This document shows, piece by piece, positions 1 to 35,878 of a stretch of DNA of 35,878 nt. The notes beneath the pieces are model-generated. The model saw nothing but the letters and a program-made list of their open reading frames with translations. It searched no databases and had not been told where the DNA came from. Made by a program: the position numbers and the translations under genes. Source of the DNA: a virus. The DNA lies in IMG/VR virus record IMGVR_UViG_3300006840_000056, positions 1 through 35,878 of that record. The stretch is one strand, 5' to 3'. Position 1 is the stretch's first letter. Each line of letters starts with the position of its first letter.

Positions 1-133
1 CTACTATGGTATCAATGTCAAGTCCGTCAGATGGATATACATTTATATTTTGTACTACTGATTTATTATTTATATTATCAGGCAAGCTGTTGTTAGGTAT
101 TATTCTTCCGCTTTGGCTTGGTACAAATAGTTC
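1..133. repeat. terminal direct repeat, copy 1 (identical to 35746..35878); assembly overlap of a circular or circularly permuted genome
   Basis: Read by eye: ctactatggtatcaatgtcaagtccgtcag...ggtacaaatagttc is identical at both window ends (133 nt). Confidence 0.95.
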
Positions 134-1690: not shown

Positions 1691-1732
1691 TTTGCTATCC
1701 TCATTTCTGATATTAACTTTTTAGATGTCATA

Positions 1733-2431: not shown

Positions 2432-2938
2432 TTAAGCACTAGAATCACCTATTAACCCAAGCATATCGCCATCAAGTCTTGTTTCGTCAATTATTCCTTC
2501 AAATTCCAACTCAACAACTCTTTCCTCATCAACCTTAAAAGGTATTTGAATACTGTTTACTACTACTGCCTTATAGATAACTACATCTTCCGACAAGTCA
2601 TCATCATCGTTTGCTACTGGGTGTAATACAAGTGTTTCTGCTGCATCTGATAACCTTAAACCAACGTCACCACCTATCTTAATAGATGAAGCCGAATTTT
2701 CCCCTGCTGGTATTGCAATAGCCAAGTTAGCTATTGAAGATTCAGCTAAAGGTACTGTAGCTCTTAACTTTTGCCCAATTAATACTTTTTCTGCTGGTGT
2801 GCTTCCGTATTGGTCTACGGTTATATCGTGGATATCCGGTTCGTAAGTCACGGTAACCCCACCTTTAGTATGACCTAGAGGCACGTTACCAAATGTTACT
2901 GCACAGACACCCATTTTTACATTAGATATGTCACTCAT
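2432..2938 (-). CDS. major tail (tube) protein
   Basis: 168 aa, strong SD (GAAAGGCGGTGAAAATAAATG). The position immediately upstream of the chaperone pair is typical of a siphovirus tail tube gene. Confidence 0.75.
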   Translation of the reverse strand: MSDISNVKMGVCAVTFGNVPLGHTKGGVTVTYEPDIHDITVDQYGSTPAEKVLIGQKLRATVPLAESSIANLAIAIPAGENSASSIKIGGDVGLRLSDAAETLVLHPVANDDDDLSEDVVIYKAVVVNSIQIPFKVDEERVVELEFEGIIDETRLDGDMLGLIGDSSA

Positions 2939-3138
2939 TTATTTTCACCGCCTTTCAAATTAGAACTTAATACTTTTACTAACTCATTTTTGGTTGTCTT
3001 AAAATTAATTATATTCACTTCGTTACATTTAGGGCATTTTATTTCCAATCTCCCCGCATAGATATATTCCATAGCCAACAAGTTACGACACTTGCTACAT
3101 CTAAACTCTCTATAAGGTTTTTCATTTATATATCTCAT
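2935..3138 (-). CDS. Com-like zinc-ribbon protein
   Basis: FRCSKCRNLLAMEYIYAGRLEIKCPKCNEVNII matches the phage Mu Com pattern R-C-x2-C-x2-L-L-x(7-8)-[IL]-E-I-[RK]-C-P-[RK]-C. Its stop overlaps the tail tube ATG (ATGA). Confidence 0.65.
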   Translation of the reverse strand: MRYINEKPYREFRCSKCRNLLAMEYIYAGRLEIKCPKCNEVNIINFKTTKNELVKVLSSNLKGGENK

Positions 3139-3515
3139 CTTCTTATCTTACAAACAAAATTAATACTAAACTCGTGCCTGCCCTTGTCGTCACGTCCTAT
3201 GTGGGCTGGTTCATTAAACAAAAATATGTAATAAAAATATGTACCACCAGTTACAAGTTCAATGTTTTCTTTTTGGTGCAATGCCTCTACTATTTCATCT
3301 ACTATGCTTTGCCCAGCAGAGTAACTTGTGTTTCTTACTAATATTTGAAAAGTTGGATCTGCTGTTGGCAAGTATCTGTCCGGTTCTAATCCTCCTGTAT
3401 CATAAATAACCACCTGATTATTGGGACTTTCCGTCTGTCTTGACTTAAACAAATCAGTACCGGCTGTTAAGCTAGTTTCCTGTCCTATGTATGTATATAT
3501 ATCGTTTATAATCAC
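3135..3515 (-). CDS. tail completion / tail terminator-like protein (minor capsid protein family)
   Basis: 126 aa with a GTG start in a GTGA overlap and GAGGT upstream. Size and position between the gp10-like gene and the tail tube fit this role. Confidence 0.55.
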   Translation of the reverse strand: MIINDIYTYIGQETSLTAGTDLFKSRQTESPNNQVVIYDTGGLEPDRYLPTADPTFQILVRNTSYSAGQSIVDEIVEALHQKENIELVTGGTYFYYIFLFNEPAHIGRDDKGRHEFSINFVCKIRR

Positions 3516-3847
3516 CTTATTACCTCTGCACTAAGCGTTTTTCCAACCAACTTTTCTAGTCGGCTTAAATTATGTTTTATAGGATCTTCTAAGTATTTAC
3601 CTTTCCTACCATTCTTAAAATTGTATTCCGGGTGTTCGTGCAATCGGTGAGCATATTTTGTGTGATAACCAACCTCAACGTGATCAGTAAATGTATCTAC
3701 CCTACCAGAGTTAGCCAAAGTACCTTTATCAAAAGGCACTTCTATATTTGATAGACGCAATATTTCATCTCCAGCCATCTTTTCAGCTTTTTGCTTTGCT
3801 GGATCTATCCTTTTATTTAGTTGTTTTAGTAAGTCAGTAAACAACAT
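3512..3847 (-). CDS. HK97 gp10-like head-tail joining protein
   Basis: Motifs VPFDKGTLANSG...VEVGYHTKYAHRLHE resemble the gp10 family. I take ATG 3847 (AAAGGTGGGAAGCATAATG). The track's GTG 3871 has no SD spacing. Confidence 0.7.
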   Translation of the reverse strand: MLFTDLLKQLNKRIDPAKQKAEKMAGDEILRLSNIEVPFDKGTLANSGRVDTFTDHVEVGYHTKYAHRLHEHPEYNFKNGRKGKYLEDPIKHNLSRLEKLVGKTLSAEVIR

Positions 3848-4014
3848 TATGCTTCCCACCTTTGTACCCACACCTCATAGTGATGAACTTTTGAAATATC
3901 GTCCAACGCTTCTTTTAACGCAATAACCCTGTAATCCTGTCCGTCATAGGTAACCTTTGTACCAACCGTCAACCCTTCGGTTTCTTTATCCATATAAATT
4001 AGTGCGTCAGCCAT
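3847..4014 (-). CDS. head closure / head-tail adaptor-like protein (minimal ATG-initiated version; frame is open up to 4167)
   Basis: Own translation: ...IKVYGTVTRNEYNEESFSGGNDYYGRFQLKNKLFTNEKGEDIMADALIYMDKETEGLTVGTKVTYDGQDYRVIALKEALDDISKVHHYEVWVQRWEA. TAATG overlap with the next gene. The first canonical start is ATG 4014. Confidence 0.5.
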   Translation of the reverse strand: MADALIYMDKETEGLTVGTKVTYDGQDYRVIALKEALDDISKVHHYEVWVQRWEA

Positions 4015-8307: not shown

Positions 8308-8874
8308 TTAGCTGTAGGTTAATTCTATTCTGAACGCAAAAGCTGTCTTTTCACCAACCGAAGCCGGTGACGCTGATACACCTATGTAATAATCGTGTGA
8401 TGTACTTGCAGTGTCGTCGTTCAAAGTTAAAGCTTTACCACTACCTTCTATTTCTGTGAAGTTGGTGTCACCAACTTCAAATGCCCTTACATCTATGTCT
8501 GTAGGTGCGGTTGCTGGTGTAGTACCATCATACGCATAAAATTTAGCATTTGTAGTTGTTACTGCCGAAGTGTGCGAGAAGTTAATTTTTAGTGTAGCTT
8601 CTGCGTTTGTTATTGCGTCAATGTCTTCTGTACCGTCACCCCAGTCTGCTTGTGAGTCGCCACCGCCACCACCTGATTGTGAAATGAACTTCACGTTGTT
8701 AGGTGTATTGCCAGACGAATCGTTAGCACCCACACTACTTTCAACGTGTGTGCTGTCGTTATACGAACCTACCGTAATGGGGCTACCAAAAGTAGCACCT
8801 GCAAATTGTATTTTGTCGGTTGCGTCTATTGTTGTAGGGGTTGCACCCTGTAATGTCCAAGTAAATGTTGCCAT
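8308..8874 (-). CDS. Ser/Thr/Gly-rich hypothetical protein (possible virion decoration protein)
   Basis: 188 aa with a strong SD (GAAAGGCGGTG). Low-complexity T/S/G stretches (SQSGGGGGDSQ, TTPATAPT). Location in the head-proximal island. Confidence 0.55.
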   Translation of the reverse strand: MATFTWTLQGATPTTIDATDKIQFAGATFGSPITVGSYNDSTHVESSVGANDSSGNTPNNVKFISQSGGGGGDSQADWGDGTEDIDAITNAEATLKINFSHTSAVTTTNAKFYAYDGTTPATAPTDIDVRAFEVGDTNFTEIEGSGKALTLNDDTASTSHDYYIGVSASPASVGEKTAFAFRIELTYS

Positions 8875-9198: not shown

Positions 9199-12183
9199 TT
9201 AAAAACACCTCATAACTTCTTTTGGAATACTACCTGTATACTTTTCTACAGTACCACCCCCGTGTGTAGGTTGTGTCGGGTCGCCTGTTTTCCAGTCGGT
9301 CCAAGTATCTTTTACTGTAAGTCGTGTGTCCCTGTTTTTGTAGAACTCCAATTTGTCTTTAATGTCTTCAGCGTCTTTACAATACCCAAAATGGTGTAAC
9401 TTAATACTATTATCTAATACTCTGCCGTATTTGTCACCTATACGTGTACCACTTACAAGTGTTGGTTCACTTGCGTGTTGCTTGATTTCCAGCCCTTTTT
9501 CGGCAAACCTAAAACATCTAAATAGGTTACTTTCCCACTGACTACCTACGGCTATCATATCTAACGACTTCCAAAAATGTAAATGCTTAAAATAAATAAC
9601 ACCCGCATTGGGGTTTTCACGCATTTTCTTAACTAATTTACGCCAATAATAATCACCCCACACTTCGTCCCCGTCAACAAACAATCCCCAACCTACTTGG
9701 TCAGCTAAATCAATACATTTTTGTCGCAATGCTTCCTTACCACTAACCCACCCCATTTGCTCGTATATTATCTTATTTGGATATTCTTCCATTACCTTGC
9801 GTATTTCCTTTTCAGTATTATCAACACTTAAACCTCTTTCATTAGCACGTGGGTAACGCCTGTCAGCACCCTCAACCACAATTACCTTGTCTACTTCTTT
9901 ACGCTTACATACCGCACGTAATGACGCACCTATGAACTTTTCTTCGTTTAAGACAATAAACATAGGCGTTACTTTTAGTTTTTCGTCTTTTTTCCTGATA
10001 GGTTTAACTATGTTTAACAACTTGTCCTGCATAACCTCAAAATAATGGTCTGTTTTAGGTGTAAGTGGTTTGCTACCAATAGCAAGCCCTAACTTGTCCT
10101 GTAATTCCTGTTTGTCAAAACATTTTGCCTTATACATACCCCCATCATCGTAAATATCCTTTATAGCTGGTAAGTCGTAACACACTACTGGTATACCCAT
10201 TGCCCGTGCTTCCGTAACCCACATACCAAACCCCTCAAAATGTGAACCAGATAACACACATTTACTTTGTGCCATTAGTTTGAACTTTTCCACATCTGAC
10301 AGTTGAGTATGCACCACAACCTTGTCAAACGGTATACCCAATGCCTCTACTTTGTTTATTATGCCGTTATCTTCATTAGTTATTATGTGTAATGTGTGGT
10401 CACGGCTAAACGGCTTAAACGCCCACAATGCTTCTAAAAAGCCCTTTCTTGGGTTATTACGTGATATCATAACTATGTGGTTGCCTCTTGCACGTTTAGT
10501 ACGTTTATCAAACAACTCAACCAACCTACTATTTACTGCGGGGTGTAGTGCTACGATGTATTTCTTGTCTATACCATACCATTTAGCCCAATCGTCAATA
10601 CTGTTTTCTGTCAACACAATTAACTTAAAATCAATTAACTCGTGTAAATGCTTGTCTAAAAAGTCCTTTAACTCGTAGTCCCTTTGTAATTCGTCTTTGG
10701 TACAAACATCACTATTCTCTACCCAAGTAGGTGGGTCAAACATTGTGATATAAACGGGTTTTTTGTATTTAAGCCCCAACCGTAAAGCACACATACTTGC
10801 TTTCGCGGGACTGCCAAAATACGCATTGGCTTCTACATCTAAATCATAAAACGCCTCTGCACCTTTGTATTTTGATTTATTGTCGTGTCCTATTATTCTA
10901 ACTTCGGGCGTTTCGTATAAATCAAAGTCCTTTCTAAATATTGGCATTTCGTTCGTATAAATAACTGTCTTTAGGTTGGATTCGGTTAACATTAATGCCT
11001 GTAACCAACTGTGGTATCTACCGCCAGAATAGAAACGTATATCTTCTGTTAAAAAAGCCACATCAGGTTTATCGTCTGGTATTACCTTGCTGTTTACTTC
11101 CTTTAATACCTTTGCCAACTTTTTAGCCGAGTGTTCTGCTGTCCAATTCTCACTTACCCATTTAGCACCCGCCTTACCTTTTGCCCGTGCTTCGTCTTGG
11201 TGTTCGTATACATAACGCATTTGCTTTTTAAGTGATTCTAAATCGGGTTCAATCATTCTACCCACATCGCTGGGTGCATAGTTTGAGTATACTGCTGGGC
11301 AATCGCCGTTAATGTCTATTTCATAAAAATAATCGGGGTCAAAGTATTCCGACATACCGCTTCCATTAGGTATCAGTACGGGCAGTCCTGTTGCAAGTGC
11401 TTCTAAAGGTGTAAGCCCAAAACCCTCGCCCCTGCTTGGGAATACAAACGCATCTGCTTGGGATAACAGGTCACGCATTTGCTGGTAACTGTATTCGGCT
11501 TTTATTACATCTATGTTAGGGTACTGGTCTTTTAATAATGGGAACGGCGGTTTATTGTGTATGGTTTTGAATATCATCTTAACTGGCTCGTCAATACCGA
11601 ACTCTTGGGTAAACGCCTTAAAAACCAAATCAAAGCCCTTTCTTATATTAAAAGCATTGTAATGTAAAAAGGTAAACACGTCGTGCTTTGGGCGTTCAAT
11701 ATATCTGTATTCTTCGTGGTTATACCCCAAAGGTACTACTGTTGTTTCTATGCCACGTGTGGCAAACATTTCTTGGCAGAACTCACTTGGAACAATTACC
11801 TTATCGGCTCTTTTTAAGTGCCTAACCCAGCTTGTAGGTATGGTGGTGCTTTCAAACATTGAATATATTACTTTAATGGGTGTTTTTAGTCGGTCTGCAA
11901 ATACAGGCGTGTAATAACACATACCTATGTTTTGCCCGTCGTATTTTTTGCTAATATTAACACCGTGTTTTTTTAGGTGTTTCATTAAATATGCTTGACT
12001 TTGCCCGTACCCGTCAGGGCGGTCAGTAGAGGTTAACAAATATACTGGTAAACCAGCACTTGTATCTTGTTTATTAATTGTCTTGGGCTGTTCATCTAAT
12101 AAAGTAAAACCACGCCTTAAAAGCTGTTCAACCTTACTGCTTGAAACACCCACGATTTGCCCAGAAGGATTACGTAAAAACAT
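9199..12183 (-). CDS. three-domain glycosyltransferase (GT-B/GT4-like + GT-B/GT4-like + GT-A/GT2-like)
   Basis: Two E-x7-E type GT4 signatures are present: PSRGEGFGLTPLEALATGLPVL and SGSHFEGFGMWVTEARAMGIPVV. The C-terminal domain (VTPMFIVLNEEKFIGASLRAV...VVEGAD...FVDGDEVW) has a DxD motif typical of GT2. Confidence 0.8.
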   Translation of the reverse strand: MFLRNPSGQIVGVSSSKVEQLLRRGFTLLDEQPKTINKQDTSAGLPVYLLTSTDRPDGYGQSQAYLMKHLKKHGVNISKKYDGQNIGMCYYTPVFADRLKTPIKVIYSMFESTTIPTSWVRHLKRADKVIVPSEFCQEMFATRGIETTVVPLGYNHEEYRYIERPKHDVFTFLHYNAFNIRKGFDLVFKAFTQEFGIDEPVKMIFKTIHNKPPFPLLKDQYPNIDVIKAEYSYQQMRDLLSQADAFVFPSRGEGFGLTPLEALATGLPVLIPNGSGMSEYFDPDYFYEIDINGDCPAVYSNYAPSDVGRMIEPDLESLKKQMRYVYEHQDEARAKGKAGAKWVSENWTAEHSAKKLAKVLKEVNSKVIPDDKPDVAFLTEDIRFYSGGRYHSWLQALMLTESNLKTVIYTNEMPIFRKDFDLYETPEVRIIGHDNKSKYKGAEAFYDLDVEANAYFGSPAKASMCALRLGLKYKKPVYITMFDPPTWVENSDVCTKDELQRDYELKDFLDKHLHELIDFKLIVLTENSIDDWAKWYGIDKKYIVALHPAVNSRLVELFDKRTKRARGNHIVMISRNNPRKGFLEALWAFKPFSRDHTLHIITNEDNGIINKVEALGIPFDKVVVHTQLSDVEKFKLMAQSKCVLSGSHFEGFGMWVTEARAMGIPVVCYDLPAIKDIYDDGGMYKAKCFDKQELQDKLGLAIGSKPLTPKTDHYFEVMQDKLLNIVKPIRKKDEKLKVTPMFIVLNEEKFIGASLRAVCKRKEVDKVIVVEGADRRYPRANERGLSVDNTEKEIRKVMEEYPNKIIYEQMGWVSGKEALRQKCIDLADQVGWGLFVDGDEVWGDYYWRKLVKKMRENPNAGVIYFKHLHFWKSLDMIAVGSQWESNLFRCFRFAEKGLEIKQHASEPTLVSGTRIGDKYGRVLDNSIKLHHFGYCKDAEDIKDKLEFYKNRDTRLTVKDTWTDWKTGDPTQPTHGGGTVEKYTGSIPKEVMRCF

Positions 12184-12282: not shown

Positions 12283-13224
12283 TTACGCATCTACTGCGGG
12301 TTGGTGTGCGATAGCAACCATCAATTCAGGTCTAATGGTCTTAACTCCGTAAAGGATATCAAGCGTACATTGTAAACCAAGTCCTGATTTATCGTATCCA
12401 ATAGTGCTTCTGATAGCCAAGCCACTCTCTGCGTCTTGAACAGTCATTTGGCTTACGCCATTTCCGTTACCCCAGTCAGGTAATGGTCTGACCGCCAGAA
12501 CAAGAGCATCGCTACCATAAACGATTGGGTAATAAGTGTCAGGTGACGTACTGTCATCAACACCTACAACTTGTGATTCAAACAAGTTAATACCCGCCAG
12601 TTTTTCAACTGAAGCGTCTAAAAGCGGTTTGTTATTTCCGAATTGTGACGCATCTTCAATACCAGTCTCGTTAAGGATTTCTTCAACCGCATACTCGTCA
12701 AGCTGTGCGAACATAGGTGCGAACTTTGGTAACTTGTTAGTTACTAGGGTTCGTCTAGCTCTTACCAACGCCTTTTTCCAACCAGTAAAGTCGGTATAGT
12801 CAAGCGTTGTACCAGCGTTTGCGTATTCATCGGCAATATCCTGTTCCACCTGTTCAGCGATAACTGCAACCGCATCTCTAATGTAAGCCTCTAACACTGC
12901 TGGGATAGACACTGCTTTCGCAACGTCCTCAATCATAAAGGTTACTTCCTTATGCTTGTTAAGTACCACCTGCACTACATCATCATCAGGTGCTTGTACT
13001 GTAACATTAGTTTTAGCTGTCTTATCGTTTACTTCAAGTGTTCCTCTTACTGGAATATCCAATGTAGTACCTCTGCTTGCGAAATCGCCAGAATAATCCT
13101 TTCTAACGGTTCTTGCAAGGTTTAGGTACTTTCTTAAATAATCAAGTCCCTCGTTTGCTGACCTAACCATTATTTCAGGTATATGATTAGCAAGTTCGGT
13201 TTGTCCTATTGCTGTATATGGCAT
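12283..13224 (-). CDS. major capsid protein
   Basis: 313 aa with a strong SD (GAAAGGTGGTGAAATAAAATATG). It lies directly after the scaffold gene and is followed by a strong terminator, which fits a highly expressed late gene. Confidence 0.8.
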   Translation of the reverse strand: MPYTAIGQTELANHIPEIMVRSANEGLDYLRKYLNLARTVRKDYSGDFASRGTTLDIPVRGTLEVNDKTAKTNVTVQAPDDDVVQVVLNKHKEVTFMIEDVAKAVSIPAVLEAYIRDAVAVIAEQVEQDIADEYANAGTTLDYTDFTGWKKALVRARRTLVTNKLPKFAPMFAQLDEYAVEEILNETGIEDASQFGNNKPLLDASVEKLAGINLFESQVVGVDDSTSPDTYYPIVYGSDALVLAVRPLPDWGNGNGVSQMTVQDAESGLAIRSTIGYDKSGLGLQCTLDILYGVKTIRPELMVAIAHQPAVDA

Positions 13225-16271: not shown

Positions 16272-17423
16272 CTAGAACGGTTTAGTAGTATATGCTTTTG
16301 CCTTTTTTGGCTTGTTCATATACGAGTGAACCGCATAGCGTAAACTATCTACAAAGTCGTCCCTTATTTTAACGGGTTCGTCAAGCACACGGTCGTCCTT
16401 TGTTTTCCAGCTATAAGACTTCAATTCTTTTAGGGCGTTGCTTGACGCTTTATCAACAAACAACCGCCTACTTTTTATAGTATCTATTCCTTTCTTAACG
16501 TCCTTGTCTGCGGGGTATATGTTGTAACCCGCCTTCTTTATTTCCTCAATACGTTGTGGCTCGGCACTATCTGCAAACATATATGTGTTTTTGTCTATTC
16601 CTATATCGTTCATTTTTTTAATAAGGTCTTGGTTGGTTATGTAGCTTTCGTAAATAACTTCCTGTGTATATACATCATCATCTTTTAACACAACCCTTGT
16701 CAATGCTGTAGGGTGATTCCAGCCAAAGTCCAAACCATAAACCATTTCACCCTCTGGTAAACTATCAATTAGTTCCCACATTGTGTATATTCTCACACTA
16801 CTTACACCACGTTGTCCAAGCCCGTAAATATTCCAATAGTTAGGATCAAGTTCCTTAAAATGTTCTATTTCCTTTACTATTTCCTTTGGTAAAAAGGGAT
16901 TGTCCTTATAGGTACTTACTATTAAACGTGCGTCTTTCCTTGTTAGTACGTCATCGTAAATCCAATGAAACTCATCACTTGGGTTAAAGTCCATAAATAT
17001 CTGCGTGTTGGTACGCATATTCAACTGTCTAAACGATTCCTGCGACAATTCGTTAGCTTCGTTTATCCACAGGTAATCCCTACGCCTACTACGTACTTTC
17101 TGCGGTTCGTCTAACCCGAAAAACTCTATCTCGTTGCCGTGTAATGTGTAAATGTTTTCTGTTTTATTGTGGTTTTCTTCGTTGTACACACCCAAGCCCT
17201 GCAATATGTTAAAAAAGTCCCTCATAGCAGTAGCACGTAACGTGGGCATTGACTTACGCACTATACTAAACACCTTACCCTGTGTTTGCTGTGCTTTTAC
17301 TATGAACAGTTGTGCTAACGAATAAGATTTGGAACTACCTGTACCACCTTGGTTTACTACAAACCTTTCGGTAGCTTTGTAGTTTTCGTTAAATACTCTC
17401 GTTGCTTTCAGAGTTAGTTCCAT
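16272..17423 (-). CDS. terL: terminase large subunit (PBSX/Terminase_3-like)
   Basis: Walker A-like VVNQGGTGSSKSYS. The Walker B region is ...DYLWINEANEL. The C-terminal nuclease region is DFGWNHPTA...FADSAEPQ. Confidence 0.9.
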   Translation of the reverse strand: MELTLKATRVFNENYKATERFVVNQGGTGSSKSYSLAQLFIVKAQQTQGKVFSIVRKSMPTLRATAMRDFFNILQGLGVYNEENHNKTENIYTLHGNEIEFFGLDEPQKVRSRRRDYLWINEANELSQESFRQLNMRTNTQIFMDFNPSDEFHWIYDDVLTRKDARLIVSTYKDNPFLPKEIVKEIEHFKELDPNYWNIYGLGQRGVSSVRIYTMWELIDSLPEGEMVYGLDFGWNHPTALTRVVLKDDDVYTQEVIYESYITNQDLIKKMNDIGIDKNTYMFADSAEPQRIEEIKKAGYNIYPADKDVKKGIDTIKSRRLFVDKASSNALKELKSYSWKTKDDRVLDEPVKIRDDFVDSLRYAVHSYMNKPKKAKAYTTKPF

Positions 17424-17817
17424 CTACTATTTCTACCTTTATACCTGTAATTAAATCACCCTCGTGCTTCATTGTTTGTAGTGCCCTACCCTCTGTTCTA
17501 TCTGCTAAATCCTTATACTCACCTAAATCCTTTCTACTTGCCTTTACTCTTTCGTAAGCAATTATTTCGGCAACATACATATCGTCTTCATTTCTTGAAA
17601 GGGCATATTCTTTGAACTCTTTTGATGTTAGGTTCTTAAAGAACTGCAACCAATAACCAAACCTCTGTTCGTTCTTTGGTCTGCCTGTTCTGTTTATATC
17701 TTCTGGTCGTTCCTGCAACCCACCTTTGCCCGTAGGATTAAGCACAGCACCTTGTTTTAACGTGCCGTCAGGATTCCTCAAACTATCTTGATTTGAAGTT
17801 AGATTATCTTGTTCCAT
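17389..17817 (-). CDS. terS: terminase small subunit
   Basis: NPTGKGG...RTGRPKN motif typical of small terminases. It overlaps the terL start. Start taken at ATG 17817 (the track uses TTG 17823). Confidence 0.7.
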   Translation of the reverse strand: MEQDNLTSNQDSLRNPDGTLKQGAVLNPTGKGGLQERPEDINRTGRPKNEQRFGYWLQFFKNLTSKEFKEYALSRNEDDMYVAEIIAYERVKASRKDLGEYKDLADRTEGRALQTMKHEGDLITGIKVEIVDGTNSESNESI

Positions 17818-17834
17818 ATACAAATTATATCACT

Positions 17835-18251
17835 TTACCTGCGTCTACTAAACATCTGTACACAGTACCCATTACTACAACTGACACAACTATGTGTATA
17901 ATCGTTTTCTAAATTAGCCCTGTGGGTGTCAGAAGATAACCAAGCATTGAGTGTACTTTCAGCGTCATTAAAATCTTTAGCAAGGTTCTCACCAATGTGC
18001 TTATACCCTAACTTAAACATTACCGGTACATATGCCCAGAACCCGCGATGCGACCAATCAACCTGTATTTCTTTTACACGCTTACTTGCTATATAACACA
18101 GACAGTAATCCTTTTTGTAAGCACTTCTTCCATCCTCAACACGCCAGTCCTGTACTTGCTTCCACACGCTACCGGATGACGGAGAAGCAAATGTCGTGGT
18201 TGTAGTAATTACAAGCAAACCTATAAATATAAGGTGTTTAAGTTCTTTCAT
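17835..18251 (-). CDS. secreted CAP/SCP (YkwD-like) domain protein
   Basis: Signal peptide MKELKHLIFIGLLVITTTTTFASP. CAP motifs GENLA...AWLSSDTHRANL...GYCVQMF. Start taken at ATG 18251 rather than TTG 18260. Confidence 0.65.
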   Translation of the reverse strand: MKELKHLIFIGLLVITTTTTFASPSSGSVWKQVQDWRVEDGRSAYKKDYCLCYIASKRVKEIQVDWSHRGFWAYVPVMFKLGYKHIGENLAKDFNDAESTLNAWLSSDTHRANLENDYTHSCVSCSNGYCVQMFSRRR

Positions 18252-18825
18252 ATACTGCAAAGTTATTAATTAAATACCTTATATTACAGTTATCAGTTTC
18301 AATTATTTCTTTAGCTTTGGCGGTTATTAAATCAGTAAGTTCGGGGTTGTACTTAAACCCTGCGTTTTCTATCTTTTCAATCCAGTATTCTTTTGGCTGA
18401 CAGTTAACGTGTGATGTACCACCTTGCCCCACACCTGCACTTGTCATTAGTATTTTGTTTTCAGCGTGGCGGGTTAATATGCTTACATAATTGTCTGCAA
18501 ATTGTGGCTCTATGTGTTCTGCAACCTCAATGCTTAATACCATATCCCACATTTTGTGTAACTCTACTGGTGTTCTTAAATCCTGTATTTCTATCATATT
18601 TGACACACGTGACACAGCTTTGGTAGCTTCCGAACCGTCTATACCGTGTGTGGGGATAAGGTGTGCAAAGTATTCCATCATAAAACCAGCACCGCACCCA
18701 ACATCTAACACGCTTTTTGGCTTTAGTACGTCATAAAACATCTGTGCCAACTTAATATACGTGTTTCTATAGAACTCGTGTCCTGTAAAATATTCCGTTG
18801 TGTATATGTTATTTATTTTGTTCAT
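18238..18825 (-). CDS. class I SAM-dependent methyltransferase
   Basis: Motif I is VLDVGCGAGFMMEYF. A downstream acidic loop and VLSIEVAEHI (motif IV-like) follow. Confidence 0.8.
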   Translation of the reverse strand: MNKINNIYTTEYFTGHEFYRNTYIKLAQMFYDVLKPKSVLDVGCGAGFMMEYFAHLIPTHGIDGSEATKAVSRVSNMIEIQDLRTPVELHKMWDMVLSIEVAEHIEPQFADNYVSILTRHAENKILMTSAGVGQGGTSHVNCQPKEYWIEKIENAGFKYNPELTDLITAKAKEIIETDNCNIRYLINNFAVYERT

Positions 18826-19204
18826 TGTATAATTCCTCTAATTGCCAACTTTTTAATGGTTTAACATCTGCTTTGGCTTGGCGACGTATTTCGTTTAATT
18901 CGTCTAACACTTCCTGCCCGTAGGTTTTTAACATAAATTGCGTATAAGGTACGGGGTTTTTGTTGTGTTCCCAATTACAGCTTGAACATTGCGGGTGGAC
19001 ATTTTTCGGACACCACCTTAATTGTTTAATGTCCCTTGATATGTAATGCCCCACCTGTAACCCAAAAGGGTTGTTTTGTGGGTGAAACCAGTCTATTGCC
19101 TTACCACAAGTAACACACACTTTCGGGTACTCGGCTTTTAACCTATCCCTTACTTTATCGTCTAACTTATCAATGGTTTTTTGGCGTTCGCTTTTTTTAG
19201 CCAT
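18809..19204 (-). CDS. ninG: NinG/Rap-like recombination endonuclease
   Basis: CVTCGKAIDW...VGHYISRD..QLRW...NVHPQCSSCNWEHNKNPVPYTQFMLKTYGQEVLDEL aligns by eye with lambda NinG CISCG...AGHYRT...LRF...[36 protein letters not shown]. Confidence 0.75.
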   Translation of the reverse strand: MAKKSERQKTIDKLDDKVRDRLKAEYPKVCVTCGKAIDWFHPQNNPFGLQVGHYISRDIKQLRWCPKNVHPQCSSCNWEHNKNPVPYTQFMLKTYGQEVLDELNEIRRQAKADVKPLKSWQLEELYNEQNK

Positions 19205-20207
19205 TTAATTGTGCCTCTACCATTAATTGTACCAGTTCTTTGAACTTTGTTGTAGGTTGCCACCCCAATTCCTTGTATGCTTTGGTGTAATCGCCTACTA
19301 ATAAATCAACTTCTGCTGGTCGGTAGTATTTAGGGTTAACCTTAACTACGGTTTGCCCGTGCTGGTTAATACCTACTTCGTCTAACCCCTGCCCTTTCCA
19401 AGTAATATCCCAGTCTAATTGTCGGGCGGTTTCTTCTACGAATTCCCTAACCGAGTGGGTTTCGCCTGTGGCTATTACATAATCATCTGGCTGTGGGGCT
19501 TGTAGCATTGCCCACATAGCTTGTACATAGTCCCCAGCAAAACCCCAATCCCTTTTACTGTCTAAGTTGCCCAGTTCAACACACTCTCTTTCACGTTTCC
19601 AAACCTCTACCATTTGTTTTACTATCTTTTTAGTTACAAACTGCTCACCCCTGCGTGGGCTTTCGTGGTTGAATAAAATACCATTACAGGCAAACATATC
19701 GTAAGCCTCACGATAATTGCGGGTAATCCAATATCCAAATAGCTTACTTGCCCCGTATGGTGAACGTATATTCATAGGTGTATTTTCATTTTGTGGCACT
19801 TCTGCAACCTTTCCAAACATTTCACTACTACTGGCTTGATAGAACTTTATAGTTGGATCTATCTGCCTAATGGCTTCTAACATTCTCAATACACCAACGC
19901 CCGTTATATCTGCTGTCTGAAGTGGTAGTTTGAACGAAGCACCTACATCTGACTGCGAAGCCAAATTATACACTTCTGTAGGCTTAAAATTAGCAATCAA
20001 TGATATTAGACTGCTAATGTCCTGCAAATCCCCATACGCCAACGAAAAATCACTGACACCTACTAAATGCTTTATTCTTGATAAATTATCGGTGCTGGTC
20101 CTGCGGTACATTCCGCACACTTGATAACCTTTCTTCAGTAAGAACTCTATTAAATATGATGCATCCTGTCCGGTTGCACCGGTAACCAATGCTCTTTTTT
20201 TATTCAT
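19197..20207 (-). CDS. gmd: GDP-mannose 4,6-dehydratase
   Basis: ALVTGATGQDASYL (GxxGxxG). The stretch YNLASQSDVGASF...KFYQASSSEMFG...RSPYGASKL...YREAYDMFACNGILFNHESPRRGEQFVTKKI matches the GMD family throughout, including the S/T-Y-K catalytic residues and the NHESPRRG box. Confidence 0.9.
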   Translation of the reverse strand: MNKKRALVTGATGQDASYLIEFLLKKGYQVCGMYRRTSTDNLSRIKHLVGVSDFSLAYGDLQDISSLISLIANFKPTEVYNLASQSDVGASFKLPLQTADITGVGVLRMLEAIRQIDPTIKFYQASSSEMFGKVAEVPQNENTPMNIRSPYGASKLFGYWITRNYREAYDMFACNGILFNHESPRRGEQFVTKKIVKQMVEVWKRERECVELGNLDSKRDWGFAGDYVQAMWAMLQAPQPDDYVIATGETHSVREFVEETARQLDWDITWKGQGLDEVGINQHGQTVVKVNPKYYRPAEVDLLVGDYTKAYKELGWQPTTKFKELVQLMVEAQLNG

Positions 20208-20321
20208 TATTTTTACCTCTTATACCCTCTCGTAATTAAATACCCAATGGTGAGTGCAAGTGCTTGAAACCATTTCGGTTTTGCTTACACCCACCACAGG
20301 GTATTTAACCCTGTTTGGATA

Positions 20322-20879
20322 TTAACTATCCAAGTCCACACCGCCCAAGTCCGGCAAGTCAATCTCCTTGTCTATTTCTTTCATCTCCTCGTCTGTTATT
20401 TCTTCTTCCTTGCTAAAAACCAACCTTTGCAGTTCTTCTTCGGTTAGTTCCGGCAATTTTTCACCTTTAGCGTCTACTTTCATTACTTCCGTAATGTTTG
20501 AGTAGGTCTTGCCGTTACTTTCTTTATGCTTAACAACTATTCGCAGTCTACCACCTATTAGCGTGTTAACGTCTATGGAAGTATCGTCAAGTTGTTCACC
20601 CATTACGGCACAAGCAAAGTCGTATAACTTTGAGGATTGTCCCCCGCTAAAACCTGCTGTAAAAGCCGTACTAACAAAGTGTATTATACCCAAACCTCTC
20701 TGTTCTTCGTCAAGGATACCCAACTTGAACCACAATTTATTTACTAACTTTCCCTTATACCCTTTTTGGTTCTTTTTAAGCACCACGTCTGCTACTTGTG
20801 CGGTATAAACACCTTCCGGGATTAACTCGTAGTTTCCGCCCTCGTTTTTTATTAACGCATCATTTGGATCTACTGGCAT
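20322..20879 (-). CDS. putative ssDNA-binding protein (DUF669-like) with an acidic C-terminal tail
   Basis: YELIPEGVYTAQVADVVLKKNQKG... resembles DUF669 phage proteins. The C-terminus EEEITDEEMKEIDKEIDLPDLGGVDLDS resembles an SSB-type acidic tip. Strong SD. Confidence 0.4.
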   Translation of the reverse strand: MPVDPNDALIKNEGGNYELIPEGVYTAQVADVVLKKNQKGYKGKLVNKLWFKLGILDEEQRGLGIIHFVSTAFTAGFSGGQSSKLYDFACAVMGEQLDDTSIDVNTLIGGRLRIVVKHKESNGKTYSNITEVMKVDAKGEKLPELTEEELQRLVFSKEEEITDEEMKEIDKEIDLPDLGGVDLDS

Positions 20880-20974
20880 TGTTTATCACCACCTTTCAAA
20901 AATAAATTAGTAAAACTCTTAACTAACTACCAAACAATTCTTTTATTAAATTGTTATAGTGTCTGTCTCCTTTA

Positions 20975-20983
20975 TGTTATAAT
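20975..20983 (+). promoter_or_regulatory. extended -10 promoter element TGtTATAAT (plus strand)
   Basis: tatgTTATAAT read directly. A perfect -10 hexamer with TG one base upstream. TTGTTA lies 21 nt upstream, which is non-optimal spacing. Confidence 0.4.
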
Positions 20984-20989
20984 ATCATT

Positions 20990-21048
20990 GCAGATAAGAA
21001 ACCTTATCTGTTATCAACCGCCCGTTGAAAAAGACGGGCTTTTTGTTT
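20990..21048 (+). ncRNA. candidate plus-strand small RNA of about 55-60 nt (two hairpins, the second an intrinsic terminator)
   Basis: CAGATAAG-aaac-CTTATCTG (8-bp stem, 20991..21010) is followed by GCCCGT-tgaaaaag-ACGGGC and TTTTTGTTT (21020..21048). The U-tract is only on the plus strand. Confidence 0.4.
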
Positions 21049-21056
21049 CCTTTTAG

Positions 21057-21694: not shown

Positions 21695-21727
21695 TATTGT
21701 TCCTTTCAATTAAATAATTACTTAGTT

Positions 21728-22258
21728 TTATCCTTCAACAACCACTCCCAATGCTGTTAAGAAGTCATCTATTTGGTTCTTTTTTATTTTTGTATTCCCA
21801 TTTCTTCCATAGAACTTGGCGTGATAGAAGTCAACACCTTTCAAGTTAGCACCTTCCAAGTTAGCACCTATCAAGTAAGCATCTCTCAAGTCAGCATCTA
21901 CTAAGTTAGCACCTTCCAAGTCAGCACCTACCAAGTAAGCATCTCTCAAGTTAGCACCTATCAAGTTAGTACCTCTCAAGTCAGCATCTCCCAAGTAAGC
22001 ATCTCTCAAGTTAGCACCTATCAAGTTAGCACCTCCCAAACAAGCATCTCTCAAGTCAGCATCTCCCAAGTAAGCATCTCTCAAGTCAACATTTCTACTA
22101 ACTGCTTCTTCTACTGCTTCCTTTAAAGTAGTCTTATCACTCTCAAAGAGAACTTCTCCTGCAAGTGTCTTTATCTGCAACTTATTAGACTCTTCCTTTT
22201 CTACTTGACTTTTTATTAACTCATATGTTTCATCTGAAACTGTTATTGTTTTAGTCAT
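21728..22258 (-). CDS. pentapeptide-repeat protein
   Basis: About 19 consecutive A(D/N)LXX pentapeptides: DLRDAYLGDADLRDACLGGANLIGANLRDAYLGDADLRGTNLIGANLRDAYLVGADLEGANLVDADLRDAYLIGANLEGANLKGVDF. The DNA shows the matching 15/30-nt periodicity (caagttagcacct...). Confidence 0.9.
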   Translation of the reverse strand: MTKTITVSDETYELIKSQVEKEESNKLQIKTLAGEVLFESDKTTLKEAVEEAVSRNVDLRDAYLGDADLRDACLGGANLIGANLRDAYLGDADLRGTNLIGANLRDAYLVGADLEGANLVDADLRDAYLIGANLEGANLKGVDFYHAKFYGRNGNTKIKKNQIDDFLTALGVVVEG

Positions 22259-26705: not shown

Positions 26706-27110
26706 CTAACTATGTTTTATTGCAAGTAATTTTTCTTTTAATTCTTTTCTGTGAAGTCTTTCCTCATCTGTTAGAGGTGTATTATTACCCCTATTCGCAT
26801 TTATCCTGTTTTGAAAATGTAATGCTAGTTCACCCTGTGGTTTTTTTACAATTAAATATGGGTTTATTTCTTTTAGGAAAGTACCCGCTTTTGCGTCAGC
26901 CAACTTCCAAACGTACGCCTGTGTATGCCTATCACTTCTTTTTATTAATGGCGTAACATAACCACCAAACCTTTTTTTGAAACACATCAACACGTACTTA
27001 TTAGTGTTACTTACCTGCACATTCAATCTGTAATTATTATTACCTTTTGTGTGTACTATTGATATACAGCCCTCGCCATCAAAAAACCCCGCAAAATATC
27101 TTATATCCAT
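26706..27110 (-). CDS. LAGLIDADG homing endonuclease (single-motif, I-CreI-type)
   Basis: MDIRYFAGFFDGEGCISIV contains the LAGLIDADG motif with the acidic residue. The size (134 aa) fits homodimeric enzymes. No SD; it is preceded by a strong terminator. Confidence 0.8.
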   Translation of the reverse strand: MDIRYFAGFFDGEGCISIVHTKGNNNYRLNVQVSNTNKYVLMCFKKRFGGYVTPLIKRSDRHTQAYVWKLADAKAGTFLKEINPYLIVKKPQGELALHFQNRINANRGNNTPLTDEERLHRKELKEKLLAIKHS

Positions 27111-28426: not shown

Positions 28427-29272
28427 CTAGTAATCGTTCTTTTTCATTTCGTAGAAGTGACGCCAGTCATACTTTACGCCAACCAAACCTTTGTCATTAA
28501 CTTCTACCTCAACCACCAAACCCGACACGTTAGGCATTAAACCTTTACGTACCAAATAAGGTGTCTGTGCTTGGAACGCCCCAATAGATACGCCCTCTAC
28601 ATTTCGGTAAGCGGGTATCATTGCGTTTACGTGCCAATGTCCTACAAACATTAGGTGCGGTTTTGCTTCTGGTGAAAGTTGTTCAATGATTTTTTGCACT
28701 TTATACGAACGGGCATACGCCACACCCCCGTCCGAGTGCATAATTGCCACACGTATTGTGTCAAGGTTAATGTAAGCAAGATAATCACCGATGTATTCCA
28801 TATCGTCCCGTTCGGCACAAATAGCTTCAACTACATTGTAGCCACTCGTTTTATAGAACGATTCATCGTGATTGCCCATAATTACAAGTGTTTTAATACC
28901 TGTAACGTGTGGGTAATTGTCTACACAATATCGTTTCTGGGCTGTAGCCCCGTGTGTGTGCAGTTCGTACTCCATACCACGATATATTTTTTCACCGTCA
29001 ATCAAATCACCGCAATGCAAAACTGTGTCCACACCCTTGCGTTTACAATACTTGTAGAACGTATACAGGTGGGTTAATTGTTGGTACTTGCTACCCAAGT
29101 GGGTGCAACTAACAACACCAAAACGATACTTGCGTCCTGACATTTGCCGTATATCTGGTTTGAATGTCTTGCCAGAAGCAGTAGGTGGAACTCGTGAAAC
29201 GAAGTAGCCCCGTTTCTTTAGTTCCTCAATCAAGGTAACATTTGTTGCTTTTTCAATGTTCTGGGCAGTCAT
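28427..29272 (-). CDS. SbcD/Mre11-like calcineurin-fold metallophosphoesterase
   Basis: Motifs in order: VVSCTHLG (compare SDWHLG), HCGDLIDG, VIMGNHDESF, IMHSDGG, FVGHWH. Strong SD AAAAGGAGGGAACGATG. It is the first gene after the 330-nt intergenic region. Confidence 0.8.
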   Translation of the reverse strand: MTAQNIEKATNVTLIEELKKRGYFVSRVPPTASGKTFKPDIRQMSGRKYRFGVVSCTHLGSKYQQLTHLYTFYKYCKRKGVDTVLHCGDLIDGEKIYRGMEYELHTHGATAQKRYCVDNYPHVTGIKTLVIMGNHDESFYKTSGYNVVEAICAERDDMEYIGDYLAYINLDTIRVAIMHSDGGVAYARSYKVQKIIEQLSPEAKPHLMFVGHWHVNAMIPAYRNVEGVSIGAFQAQTPYLVRKGLMPNVSGLVVEVEVNDKGLVGVKYDWRHFYEMKKNDY

Positions 29273-29600: not shown

Positions 29601-29813
29601 CTACTTTATTCTTGTAATTGGTTCTGATGCTTTAGTTCTCAATAATATATTACCCAACCCACTTATTAAAGCCACTATTTGTAATACGGTTTCATTAGCT
29701 TCAAAGTCTTCAAAACCAAATGCAGATGCTACTGCTATTACTAATGCAAGTATATTAAACCAAAATGTTTTTGATTTAAGTAACGCCTTACCATTTATTT
29801 TCTTTTTTGCCAT
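29601..29813 (-). CDS. holin-like membrane protein (70 aa, two hydrophobic segments)
   Basis: MAKKKINGKALLKSKTFWFNILALVIAVASAFGF...VLQIVALISGLGNILLR. Start at ATG 29813 (TAATG overlap with the endolysin stop, SD AAAGGCGGTGAAG). The longer track version is rejected. Confidence 0.65.
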   Translation of the reverse strand: MAKKKINGKALLKSKTFWFNILALVIAVASAFGFEDFEANETVLQIVALISGLGNILLRTKASEPITRIK

Positions 29814-30772
29814 TATTTCTTCACCGCCTTTAGTATGCTTTCCAACCAAGCACGGAAAGCTGAAACAAGTAACTCAATACTTTGCTGTATTGTGTAGTCA
29901 GCTTGGTCTAATAATTGTTGGTTCAATTCCTCAACTTTTGTTTCCAGCTTGGTAACCTTATTTGTTAATGTAGTATTCTTGGCAGTTAGTTTGTCACACG
30001 TGTCATTCAACTTTAATATTGCCTTATCCTTTTCTTCCAGTATTATATTATTGGCTTCCCTATACCTTGCAAAACTGTCGTTTAGTTCGTCATATTTATC
30101 TTCGGCTTTGTTAGCTCTGGTCTTTTCAATAAACCACTCGTAAACATACCAACCTACCGTATGGCGTTTGCCCTCTGCGTCGTCCCAGTTGATTTTAATG
30201 TCTTTTAGGTTGCTGGGTACTACCTTGCCTATTAAAATACAATAATCAATCAATGTACGTCTTAAACTGGGTCTAAACCACCCCAGATACGATTTAAGCG
30301 ATTTAATTGTGCCACCCAATGGGTCAACTATTGTAATGTCATTCTCGTCTGCTGGGTTATACCCAACTGCCAAAACCCAATGCTGGTCGTCTGCACCTGT
30401 CTTGGGGTTATAATCAATATGTAAAATGACGGGGTAACCGTCATCAAGTGCGTTTTTTATTTGTTTAATATGGTCGTCTGTGGCGGGGTAAATATCACCA
30501 ACCCTAACCAATGCTTCCTTCATTTTATCGGTTATTTTTTCTACCGAGTGCCATACATAATTACCGCCACCTGCAAAACCACCTACCTTTTTTAGTTTAT
30601 TGTTCAAGTCTTCTGGGTCGGTATTATAACCGTAATAACATAGCCCCATTGCTAAACAGGATAACAAACAACCATAGTTCTTTATGTTGTACTTGGGATC
30701 AGTATTAAAACCTAACAAGATATTAGCCCAACGGCTATCCTGTTGACTGATTAATTTTGGTAATGTAATCAT
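29813..30772 (-). CDS. endolysin: C39-like/papain-fold cysteine peptidase with a C-terminal coiled coil
   Basis: QQDSRW...NYGCLLSCLAMGL (catalytic Cys context), DQHWVLAVGY (His), ITIVDPLGG (Asp). The C-terminal ~110 aa has heptad-like repeats (LTAKNTTLTNKVTKLETKVEELNQQLL). It lies between holin-like genes. Confidence 0.65.
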   Translation of the reverse strand: MITLPKLISQQDSRWANILLGFNTDPKYNIKNYGCLLSCLAMGLCYYGYNTDPEDLNNKLKKVGGFAGGGNYVWHSVEKITDKMKEALVRVGDIYPATDDHIKQIKNALDDGYPVILHIDYNPKTGADDQHWVLAVGYNPADENDITIVDPLGGTIKSLKSYLGWFRPSLRRTLIDYCILIGKVVPSNLKDIKINWDDAEGKRHTVGWYVYEWFIEKTRANKAEDKYDELNDSFARYREANNIILEEKDKAILKLNDTCDKLTAKNTTLTNKVTKLETKVEELNQQLLDQADYTIQQSIELLVSAFRAWLESILKAVKK

Positions 30773-35714: not shown

Positions 35715-35878
35715 AGTGATGTCCTATATTTGTATGCCAACCTTTCTACTATGGTATCAATGTCAAGTCCGTCAGATGGATATACATTTATATTTTGTAC
35801 TACTGATTTATTATTTATATTATCAGGCAAGCTGTTGTTAGGTATTATTCTTCCGCTTTGGCTTGGTACAAATAGTTC
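35711..35878 (-). CDS. tail tape measure protein, C-terminal end (35746..35878 duplicates 1..133; unique tail ...DTIVERLAYKYRTSL, stop TGA 35711..35713)
   Basis: The frame continues from position 1 through the repeat into 35745..35711. The stop overlaps the ATG of the next gene (ATGA). The circular-genome product is 574 aa. Confidence 0.85.
   Translation of the reverse strand, partial: ELFVPSQSGRIIPNNSLPDNINNKSVVQNINVYPSDGLDIDTIVERLAYKYRTSL
35746..35878. repeat. terminal direct repeat, copy 2 (identical to 1..133)
   Basis: Same 133-nt string as the window start. The repeat lies inside the tape measure coding frame, which reads through the junction in phase. Confidence 0.95.

Follow-up and report, generated by a model that had tools for sequence, protein, structure and literature searches.

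The viral record IMGVR_UViG_3300006840_000056 (35,878 nt; the window, meaning the whole stretch of DNA analyzed) carries a gene for GDP-mannose 4,6-dehydratase (GMD; gene gmd) upstream of its terminase genes and a gene for a large glycosyltransferase (GT) next to that of its major capsid protein (coat). We propose that these two genes, with one for a small S-adenosylmethionine (SAM)-dependent methyltransferase, belong to a phage-encoded glycosylation system that uses a 6-deoxyhexose and probably serves the virion, a reading that we consider to have an even chance of being right. A first-pass annotation had grouped gmd, a NinG-like nuclease gene, the methyltransferase gene and a CAP-domain gene into one cluster with an incomplete nucleotide-sugar pathway; all four genes are real and lie at the coordinates that it gave, on the minus strand.

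Gene content of the locus

The two ends of the window (1..133 and 35746..35878) form an exact 133-nt direct repeat, and the window is thus a complete circular assembly of 35,745 bp. The tape-measure gene spans the circular junction, all substantial open reading frames (ORFs) lie on the minus strand, and the GC content is 38%. Along the direction of transcription, the early side holds a pentapeptide-repeat gene, two small ORFs and a DUF669/NGO0469-type gene, which a gap of 114 nt separates from gmd. After gmd come the genes for the NinG-like nuclease, the methyltransferase and the CAP protein, the small and large terminase subunits (terS and terL), portal, minor capsid protein, scaffold and coat. 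The coat gene is followed by the 994-aa GT, a 92-aa ORF, a Ser/Thr-rich protein (p188TS), a 138-aa ORF, a 494-aa beta-helix protein and a 495-aa protein, and then by the head-tail adaptor-like p221, connector and terminator genes, the major tail protein, chaperones, tape measure, Dit and tail proteins (Table 1).

In the run from gmd through terL no gap exceeds 11 nt: GMD and NinG overlap by 8 nt, NinG and the methyltransferase by 17 nt, and the methyltransferase and CAP by up to 23 nt, with an 11-nt gap between CAP and terS. This unbroken run is compatible with co-expression with the late genes. A promoter and terminator scan around the gmd-CAP stretch gave fewer promoter-like sites than the shuffled expectation and about as many terminator-like sites as expected.

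Table 1. Features of the window and of related loci (numbered L), with gene arrangements where these bear on gmd
Sequence	Feature	Position	Strand	Length	Profile matches or remarks
Window	Peptidase C39-like protein	29813..30772	minus		Early region; C-terminal half a long coiled coil
Window	Calcineurin-like phosphoesterase	28427..29272	minus		Early region
Window	LAGLIDADG-type homing endonuclease ORF	26706..27110	minus		PF00961 8.6e-7; among early genes
Window	Pentapeptide-repeat protein	21728..22258	minus		Pfam 4e-41; weak similarity to HetL, MfpA, Qnr
Window	DUF669/NGO0469-type replication protein	20322..20879	minus		PF05037 2.4e-7; NF046043 5.5e-13
Window	gmd, GDP-mannose 4,6-dehydratase	19197..20207	minus	336 aa	TIGR01472, PF16363
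Window	NinG/Rap-like Cys4 His-Me-finger nuclease	18809..19204	minus	131 aa	PF05766, PHROG 5034
Window	Class I SAM-dependent methyltransferase	18238..18825	minus	195 aa	Methyltransf_11, Methyltransf_23
Window	CAP/SCP (YkwD-like) domain protein	17835..18260	minus	141 aa	PF00188, TIGR02909, PDB 4ifa
Window	terS	17389..17823	minus		Start of packaging and structural genes
Window	terL	16272..17423	minus		Terminase_3 6e-34; TIGR01547 4.5e-39
Window	Major capsid protein (coat)	12283..13224	minus	313 aa	PHROG 283 2.8e-32; P22_CoatProtein C-terminal 6.9e-10
Window	Three-domain GT	9199..12183	minus	994 aa	Directly after coat; GT4 (~aa 1-370), GT4 (~400-720), GT2 (~740-994)
Window	p188TS, Ser/Thr-rich all-beta protein	8308..8874	minus	188 aa	After GT
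Window	Right-handed beta-helix (NosD/Beta_helix) protein; second protein	within 4859-7836	minus	494 aa; 495 aa	Between coat and head-tail adaptor
Window	Tape-measure gene	2..1720	minus		
Window, L007	gmd position				Hot spot near terminase
L006, L094	gmd position				Between terminase and portal
L041	Gene order				coat, GT728, GT4, GT4, Methyltransf_24, gmd-like, p188TS
L051	Gene order				coat, GT, GT4, gmd-like, p188TS
L093	Gene order				coat, GT1664, GT-A-like protein, gmd (71% identical, above cut-off), p188TS
L005	Gene order				gmd, 188-aa ORF, GT4, GT4
L094	Gene order (different lineage)				gmd, Methyltransf_24; GT4 ~0.3 kb after capsid gene, 59-aa ORF between
L076	Second extended SDR	3107..3997			Two genes after gmd-like gene
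L084	Second extended SDR	2857..3675			Two genes after gmd-like gene
Window	NinG-to-terS slot				Methyltransferase, CAP
L004	NinG-to-terS slot	1902-3358			Methyltransferase alone
L007	NinG-to-terS slot	9550-12273			Methyltransferase, 161-aa ORF, N6/N4 DNA methyltransferase
L008	NinG-to-terS slot	5195-10054			Methyltransferase, further ORFs, TAGT (DNA-base glycosyltransferase family)
L092	Slot after NinG-like gene	10989-14327			Vut_1, QueC, ParB_N; gmd precedes NinG-like gene

The dehydratase and the pathway beyond it

The gmd product scored 461.7 bits against the TIGR01472 'gmd' equivalog (cut-off 415) over profile positions 1-339 of 342 and matched PF16363 with E=4.3e-133; its best solved relative is the Aquifex GMD (2z1m, E=1.6e-121). 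Residues were surveyed in an alignment of 130 sequences that included 120 database and nine phage-locus homologues. The catalytic set S127, E129, Y151 and K155 is intact, and its Glu, Tyr and Lys are invariant across the 130 homologues. Ser at the Thr position, which we take to correspond to E. coli Thr132, is the majority state (118/130). The motifs ASSSE and YGASK and the substrate loop NHESPRRG were all found. The sole oddity lies in the NADP-binding GxxGxxG, which reads GATGQDA, the third Gly being replaced by Ala in a rare (2/130) and conservative change. The ratio of nonsynonymous to synonymous substitution rates (dN/dS) is 0.13 vs L004 and 0.07 vs L007, two of the related loci described below, and gmd is under purifying selection. 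With a score above the equivalog cut-off and an intact catalytic set, the first-pass identification as a GMD holds; the gene is genuine and, judged by these residues, the enzyme looks active. Matches to it occur in 239 phage records, all at less than 60% identity, including S-CAM7, S-SKS1, ACG-2014f and human-faecal contigs.

Pfam profiles were run over the complete genome, covering each called ORF and, in all six frames, the stop-to-stop segments of 60 aa or more (112 further segments). GMD was the only short-chain dehydrogenase/reductase (SDR) in it; no DegT/Per/ColD-type aminotransferase, cupin sugar epimerase or NTP_transferase was found, nor any recognizable GMER/Fcl, Rmd, Per or ColD partner for GMD. 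The first-pass remark that no reductase, epimerase or aminotransferase was visible therefore survives a six-frame profile scan, and as far as sequence can show the pathway beyond GMD is absent from the phage. Since the phage also has no ManC/ManB or nucleotidyltransferase, GDP-mannose must come from the host.

To call the pathway incomplete is premature, and sequence cannot judge it, because a GMD without partner is the rule in the phage GMD clade and because the GMD of the chlorovirus PBCV-1 reduces its own product. In the close GMD clade, the window, L001, L004, L005, L006, L007, L092, L093 and L094 all have no second SDR in the available sequence, so that a lone gmd is the normal state there and points to a working rather than decayed arrangement. 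An iterated GMD/SDR profile found a second SDR only in the distant relatives L076 and L084, where its best, sub-threshold matches were UDP-glucose 4-epimerase-like proteins and heptose 6-epimerase. Its identification as Rmd or GMER was supported by neither PDB nor NCBIfam; this SDR could supply the missing keto-processing step or belong to another pathway, perhaps one for heptose.

Reduction of their own product has been reported for the GMDs of Pseudomonas aeruginosa and Aneurinibacillus, and we know of no sequence determinant of this bifunctionality. The PBCV-1 enzyme likewise carries its product on to GDP-D-rhamnose (PMC5408694). The 4-keto group in the window phage would be reduced either by GMD itself or by a host enzyme of Rmd/GMER type, between which the sequence does not decide. 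A lone phage gmd thus need not mean an incomplete pathway.

The capsid-adjacent glycosyltransferase and its association with gmd

The first-pass annotation had pointed to a three-domain GT 7 kb away as a possible user of the sugar. That protein is real, with two GT4 domains and a GT2 domain, and matched Glycos_transf_1 (1.7e-30, in two stretches), GT4-conflict (3.4e-19) and Glycos_transf_2 (2.2e-9). A search of solved structures for its donor specificity gave two weak matches only. Weak homologues are annotated as glycosyltransferases in Streptomyces, Rhodococcus and Arthrobacter phages, with 24-29% identity over ~30% of the length.

Related loci were collected by a portal-profile scan of metagenome contigs, which gave 74 loci, many from activated-sludge and digester assemblies. 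Of the 32 loci with enough sequence, 29 have a GT gene that starts no more than 1.5 kb after the coat gene, at portal identities of ~40-99%; in three distant relatives the coat gene leads directly to the adaptor gene and there is no GT. All gmd-bearing loci with enough flank (7/7) carry the GT too, and no gmd was seen in the GT-less relatives. The position of gmd differs among relatives, which place it at no fewer than three different sites in the genome and repeatedly in or beside the GT block (Table 1). The gmd genes of L005, L007, L093 and L094 score above the TIGR01472 cut-off. A methyltransferase of another family (Methyltransf_24) lies inside the GT block in L041 and between the portal and capsid genes in L094. 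The link between gmd and a distant GT suggested at first pass is backed by the loci with gmd or a gmd-like gene in or beside the GT block (L041, L051, L093, L005). That gmd and the methyltransferase serve the GT is argued chiefly from this association, which recurs regardless of position.

The architecture of the GT varies, that of L093 (4366-9360) being a 1664-aa multi-domain protein. An extra GT2 gene (~221-222 aa) stands right after the big GT in L001 (12737 onward) and L007 (20392 onward), but not in the window. In L005, the 188-aa ORF between gmd and the two GT4 genes (10995..11561) starts with FLITGFARSGTKY, which by eye resembles the 3'-phosphoadenosine-5'-phosphosulfate-binding loop of sulfotransferases; its assignment as a sulfotransferase had this by-eye motif only and found no Pfam or PDB support.

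The methyltransferase

The methyltransferase scored 23.0 bits against Methyltransf_11 (cut-off 21.2) and E=1e-5 against Methyltransf_23. Its motif I is VLDVGCGAG, and PGQGGxxHVNCQPxxYW is conserved family-wide. An AlphaFold (AF2) model (pLDDT 96.4) has the class I Rossmann fold and was matched by Foldseek, with probability 1.00, to many class I methyltransferases; the neighbors were small-molecule enzymes, namely farnesyl diphosphate methyltransferase, ChlM, phosphoethanolamine methyltransferase, cyclopropane synthase and the nucleotide-sugar N-methyltransferase TylM1.

The first-pass annotation had raised the case of a DNA methyltransferase unrelated to glycans. Motif, Pfam and Foldseek results rule this out: the protein has no (D/N/S)PP(Y/F/W) motif and, on direct reading, no PP dipeptide at all, it matched neither N6_N4_Mtase nor DNA_methylase in Pfam, and no DNA methyltransferase was among the 50 Foldseek hits listed. 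Both homologues whose cellular contexts were read (P0070 and P0086) sit in polysaccharide or exopolysaccharide (EPS) clusters, one with GT4s, a flippase, MBOAT and acetyltransferases, the other an exosortase/EPS cluster beside heptose nucleotide-sugar genes. Methyltransferases of the window family co-occur with the big GT in L007 and L008. The dN/dS of the gene is 0.17, and the methyltransferase, the GT and GMD have no membrane segments. The enzyme is probably a glycan O-methyltransferase. Its activity would be independent of the GMD product, because L008 has the methyltransferase and the GT without gmd.

Candidate acceptors

Virion proteins are the most likely acceptors, because the GT, GMD and methyltransferase are soluble, because the GT lies in the head-gene block, and because there are precedents in the cluster O/F mycobacteriophages and in A064R of PBCV-1. 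Among the virion candidates p188TS stands out. It has 627 homologues, the top 120 of which show at least 68% identity and, except for one of 233 aa, have lengths of 187-190 aa; it is more conserved than the portal, and it always comes right behind the sugar genes, following gmd and GT genes in L041, L051 and L093. Its AF2 model has a pLDDT of 89.9. There was no Pfam, PHROG or PDB sequence match to it, and no Foldseek neighbor at E<1e-3 in PDB or BFVD. We infer that p188TS may be a better acceptor candidate than the coat, or a decoration protein.

The interval between coat and adaptor is an unusual location for a depolymerase- or fibre-like protein such as the beta-helix and 495-aa proteins; these may be head or neck fibres.

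An accessory-gene hot spot upstream of the terminase

The NinG-like protein matched PF05766 (E=1.4e-11; 45.1 bits, gathering threshold 25.4) over the C-terminal positions 87-179 of 193 only, and PHROG 5034 'NinG/Rap' with E=1.2e-18; the pattern CxxC...GH...CxxCN.H is readable in it. It has a dN/dS of 0.08. In 18 sources a homologue is encoded upstream of the terminase, whether or not gmd and the methyltransferase are there too, and L036, L044, L047, L048 and L073 have the gene with neither of these nearby. The NinG-like gene, a predicted nuclease, is thus a conserved backbone gene outside the sugar system. At first pass it had been called an odd neighbor; it is a regular one ahead of the terminase in many relatives, and no functional reason has to be sought for its lying between gmd and the methyltransferase, because it is a backbone gene flanked by a hot spot.

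The CAP assignment is weak, although three libraries agree on it (PF00188, 22.1 bits against a cut-off of 21.1; TIGR02909 YkwD, 3e-8, partial; PDB 4ifa SCP, 4e-4, partial). The hydrophobic N-terminus, MKELKHLIFIGLLVITTTTTFA/SP with a TFA/SP site, is compatible by reading with a Sec signal peptide. The gene is missing from L004, whose GMD is 99% identical to that of the window, and from L007 and L008. CAP is a variable accessory gene, unrelated to the sugar system.

The region from DUF669 to terS is an accessory-gene hot spot that is hypervariable across relatives. The DUF669 gene is the last conserved gene ahead of the variable region and holds the equivalent position in L001, L004, L007 and L008. 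Gene order in the near-identical phages L001 and L002 is as in the window. L007 has DUF669, gmd, NinG-like and methyltransferase genes in this order, and L008 has the same order without gmd; the contents of the slot after the NinG-like gene vary further (Table 1). Between the window (18809-20879) and L004 (227-2297), the synonymous divergence (dS) is 0.04-0.06 for DUF669 and gmd and ~0.25-0.5 for NinG, methyltransferase, terL and portal. The jump at the gmd/NinG junction indicates a recent recombination boundary and separate histories. With a backbone NinG-like gene, a hot spot around it and CAP absent from L004, the four genes do not make up the functional cluster of the first-pass annotation: gmd, methyltransferase and CAP are independent insertions around the NinG-like gene. 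Adjacency in a hot spot near the terminase does not imply that genes act together.

Interpretation and alternatives

In the mechanism that we propose, the gmd product would convert host GDP-mannose to GDP-4-keto-6-deoxymannose and so commit it to a 6-deoxyhexose donor. The 4-keto group would be reduced by an NADPH-dependent secondary activity of GMD, giving GDP-D-rhamnose, or by the host enzyme considered above, and the donor would serve the phage's own soluble GT4-GT4-GT2 protein. The 195-aa methyltransferase would most likely O-methylate the glycan after transfer, and the glycan would most probably be placed on virion proteins during assembly, on p188TS, the fibre-like proteins of the coat-adaptor interval, or the coat.

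Several observations weigh against this proposal. Whether the GMD is bifunctional cannot be read from its sequence, and the GMD of the chlorovirus ATCV-1 has no second (reductase) activity (PMC5408694). In both fold and PDB sequence searches the methyltransferase came out as no more than a generic small-molecule class I enzyme. Among the GT-bearing loci with adequate flanks, 8/15 have no gmd in the available sequence, and L008 combines methyltransferase and GT without it; gmd is therefore dispensable, and would change or boost the donor sugar rather than enable the system. The gmd-like genes of L041, L051, L076 and L084 score 335-370 bits, below the cut-off of 415. The C-terminus of the coat has no Ser/Thr-rich extension and looks alike in GT-bearing and GT-less relatives, so that an acceptor tail of the mycobacteriophage kind was not seen when the two sets of coats were compared. 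Finally, the hot spot that holds gmd and the methyltransferase also gathers DNA-modification genes in other phages, and position in it is uninformative alone.

A wider version of the proposal, which we advance tentatively and hold to be possible rather than probable, is that the window represents a large undescribed family of environmental siphoviruses whose head-gene block includes a virion glycosylation system complete in itself. The size of such a family is judged from at least 600 p188TS homologues on contigs of ~30-42 kb from sludge, digester and other metagenomes. In it, a multi-domain GT held in place directly behind the capsid gene would form the core, p188TS, conserved and of novel fold, would be the acceptor or a decoration protein, and the tailoring genes would be interchangeable and roaming: gmd, two kinds of methyltransferase, extra GT2 and GT4 genes and perhaps the sulfotransferase-like protein. 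A stand-alone, possibly bifunctional GMD would here give a coat of methylated D-rhamnose type, a bacterial-virus counterpart of chlorovirus capsid glycosylation.

A serious rival, though in our estimate an unlikely one, is that GMD, GT and methyltransferase remodel the host envelope (O-antigen, capsule or S-layer glycan) during infection. Remodeling could mask receptors, stop progeny from adsorbing to infected cells or debris, or exclude competing phages; completion of the nucleotide sugar would fall to a host Rmd or GMER, and the phage GMD would do no more than increase flux at the committed step. The absence of ManC/ManB from the phage speaks for a host with a GDP-mannose pool and quite possibly the downstream enzymes, and GT4, GT2 and the methyltransferase family are all typical of cellular polysaccharide clusters. 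Annotated cyanophages place gmd beside fucose synthase, and their gmd and epimerase genes are usually read as modifiers of the host surface (PMC12801897). The fixed place of the GT after the coat, however, is unlike the usual place of phage envelope-conversion genes, and the genome has no flippase, polymerase or membrane GT. The Pfam scan of ORFs and six-frame segments also found no integrase or lysogeny module in the complete genome, and with genes on a single strand this makes long-term surface conversion unlikely.

That the genes share no function at all strikes us as quite improbable. On this account gmd, methyltransferase and CAP sit independently in the hot spot, the GT draws on ordinary nucleotide sugars of the host, and gmd has some other role. 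The hypervariability of the DUF669-to-terS region, the separate histories implied by the abrupt dS change at gmd/NinG, the absence of gmd from about half of the GT-bearing relatives and the gene content of L008 are all as it would predict. It sits poorly with the independent occurrence of gmd or gmd-like genes in or beside the GT block of L005, L041, L051 and L093, and near the capsid-adjacent GT4 of L094, with the Methyltransf_24 genes of L041 and L094, and with the lack of any gmd in GT-less relatives.

Hypermodification of DNA, in which the GT would glycosylate modified bases with an unusual sugar supplied through gmd and the methyltransferase would act on base or sugar, all for restriction evasion, is highly improbable. 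Phage GTs that glycosylate DNA are well known (as cited in PMC12619734), the window GT also matches PF20706 'GT4 in conflict systems', and the hot spot of relatives houses TAGT (L008), 7-deazaguanine genes (L092) and a DNA methyltransferase (L007). Generic Glycos_transf_1, though, is matched more strongly than the conflict-system profile, the GT belongs to the block of capsid genes and not to the replication module, and PADLOC gave no match for GT or GMD. DNA glycosylation is unlikely above all for want of an enzyme that could produce the acceptor base: the complete genome encodes no hydroxymethylase, TET/JBP, thymidylate-synthase-like enzyme, kinase or other base-modifying enzyme.

Direct transfer by the GT of unreduced 4-keto-6-deoxymannose or its methylated form, which would make a reductase unnecessary and would suit both a genome that has none and a GMD clade in which lone enzymes are the rule, is hardly tenable, as we know of no GT4 or GT2 enzyme that takes GDP-4-keto-6-deoxymannose as donor, the second SDR after the gmd-like gene in L076 and L084 suggests that the keto group is normally processed, and the bifunctional PBCV-1 GMD is a documented alternative (PMC5408694).

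Comparison with known systems

A close parallel to the proposed virion glycosylation by the window genes is PBCV-1, whose A064R is a three-domain protein with glycosyltransferase and predicted methyltransferase domains that builds the capsid glycan (PMC5408694). Both viruses have their own GMD, a soluble multi-domain GT and a SAM methyltransferase activity of ~200 aa, which in PBCV-1 caps a deoxyhexose. PBCV-1 differs in being a eukaryotic giant virus that also encodes GMER, and its glycan is on the major capsid protein, whereas glycosylation in the window phage is a prediction. Its methyltransferase is fused to the GT; that of the window is a separate gene 6 kb away. The characterized GT domain of A064R has a GT-A fold, whereas the window GT is GT4-GT4-GT2, and the sequence relation is only at generic-family level. 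The PBCV-1 genes are A118R for GMD and A295L for GMER.

Phage-made virion glycans have been demonstrated only recently, in actinobacteriophages, where they blunt antibody recognition. To our knowledge, no nucleotide-sugar enzyme such as gmd is known from mycobacteriophages of clusters O and F. In cluster O, according to PMC11600133, which cites Freeman 2023, an O-methyltransferase and three tandem GTs modify capsid as well as tail tube. A like set, an O-methyltransferase with several GTs that decorate capsid and tail-tube subunits, is described for clusters O and F (Corndog, Che8), as cited in PMC11600133 and PMC12619734. The window has the corresponding genes in its GT4-GT4-GT2 protein and class I methyltransferase. 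The mycobacteriophage GTs are separate genes, and their glycans are on C-terminal extensions, of which none is seen on the window coat; the window phage, with its GC content and its sludge and digester metagenomes, is very distant from these phages.

The D-rhamnan, or common polysaccharide antigen, of P. aeruginosa is made with Gmd, Rmd, the GT4 rhamnosyltransferases WbpX/Y/Z and associated methyltransferases. By description only, it shares the logic of GDP-mannose passing through GMD to a GDP-6-deoxyhexose, a GT4 and O-methylation, but its dedicated Rmd, ABC exporter and lipid carrier have no counterpart in the phage. Other phage carriers of gmd are built differently: in S-CAM7 gmd adjoins an annotated GDP-L-fucose synthase while the window gmd stands alone, and the cyanophage carriers are large myoviruses with many lipopolysaccharide-type genes, whereas the window is a 36-kb siphovirus with a capsid-adjacent GT. 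The NinG-like protein recalls lambda NinG/Rap and HNH nucleases beside the terminase, being a predicted nuclease of small size and Cys4 His-Me-finger type whose gene comes late in the early region, just upstream of the packaging genes; it differs in having 131 aa, against 193 in the profile, and only the C-terminal part of the profile.

The presence of gmd in phages and the existence of phage-made virion glycans are already known; what is new is their combination and setting, in a widespread uncultured family of siphoviruses where a multi-domain GT lies beside the capsid gene and tailoring genes, a lone gmd among them, move about the genome. The window suggests that virion glycosylation may reach an abundant uncultured family of wastewater and environmental phages, with a fused three-domain GT at the capsid gene, and that such phages may supply their own nucleotide-sugar enzyme and so alter the sugar used. 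The system would also make an inexpensive host-free test bed, since GMD, methyltransferase, GT and two or three candidate acceptors can be co-expressed.

Other features of the genome and its relatives

A megablast search of positions 16000-22000 against 50,697 phage records gave zero matches, and the portal is at most 31% identical to that of any annotated phage (Clostridium and Paenibacillus phages), so that no annotation could be transferred. Host searches gave little: a portal-profile search of genome contigs had no match, and a sequence-cluster look-up returned one name only, a contig binned as 'Candidatus Fermentibacteria'. The nearest named GMD homologues (~60% identity) are spread over Caldisericum, bacteria of the candidate phyla radiation, archaea and Armatimonadota. 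No tRNA genes were found in the window.

Two relatives found through the portal lie on very large contigs, L059 (1.41 Mb; portal 44% identical) and L078 (1.07 Mb; 37%); these distant relatives may be prophages, whereas the window has no integrase. Among the early genes, the pentapeptide-repeat protein could be a DNA mimic directed against gyrase or host defenses. LAGLIDADG ORFs like that of the window are present in L007 and L094 as well.

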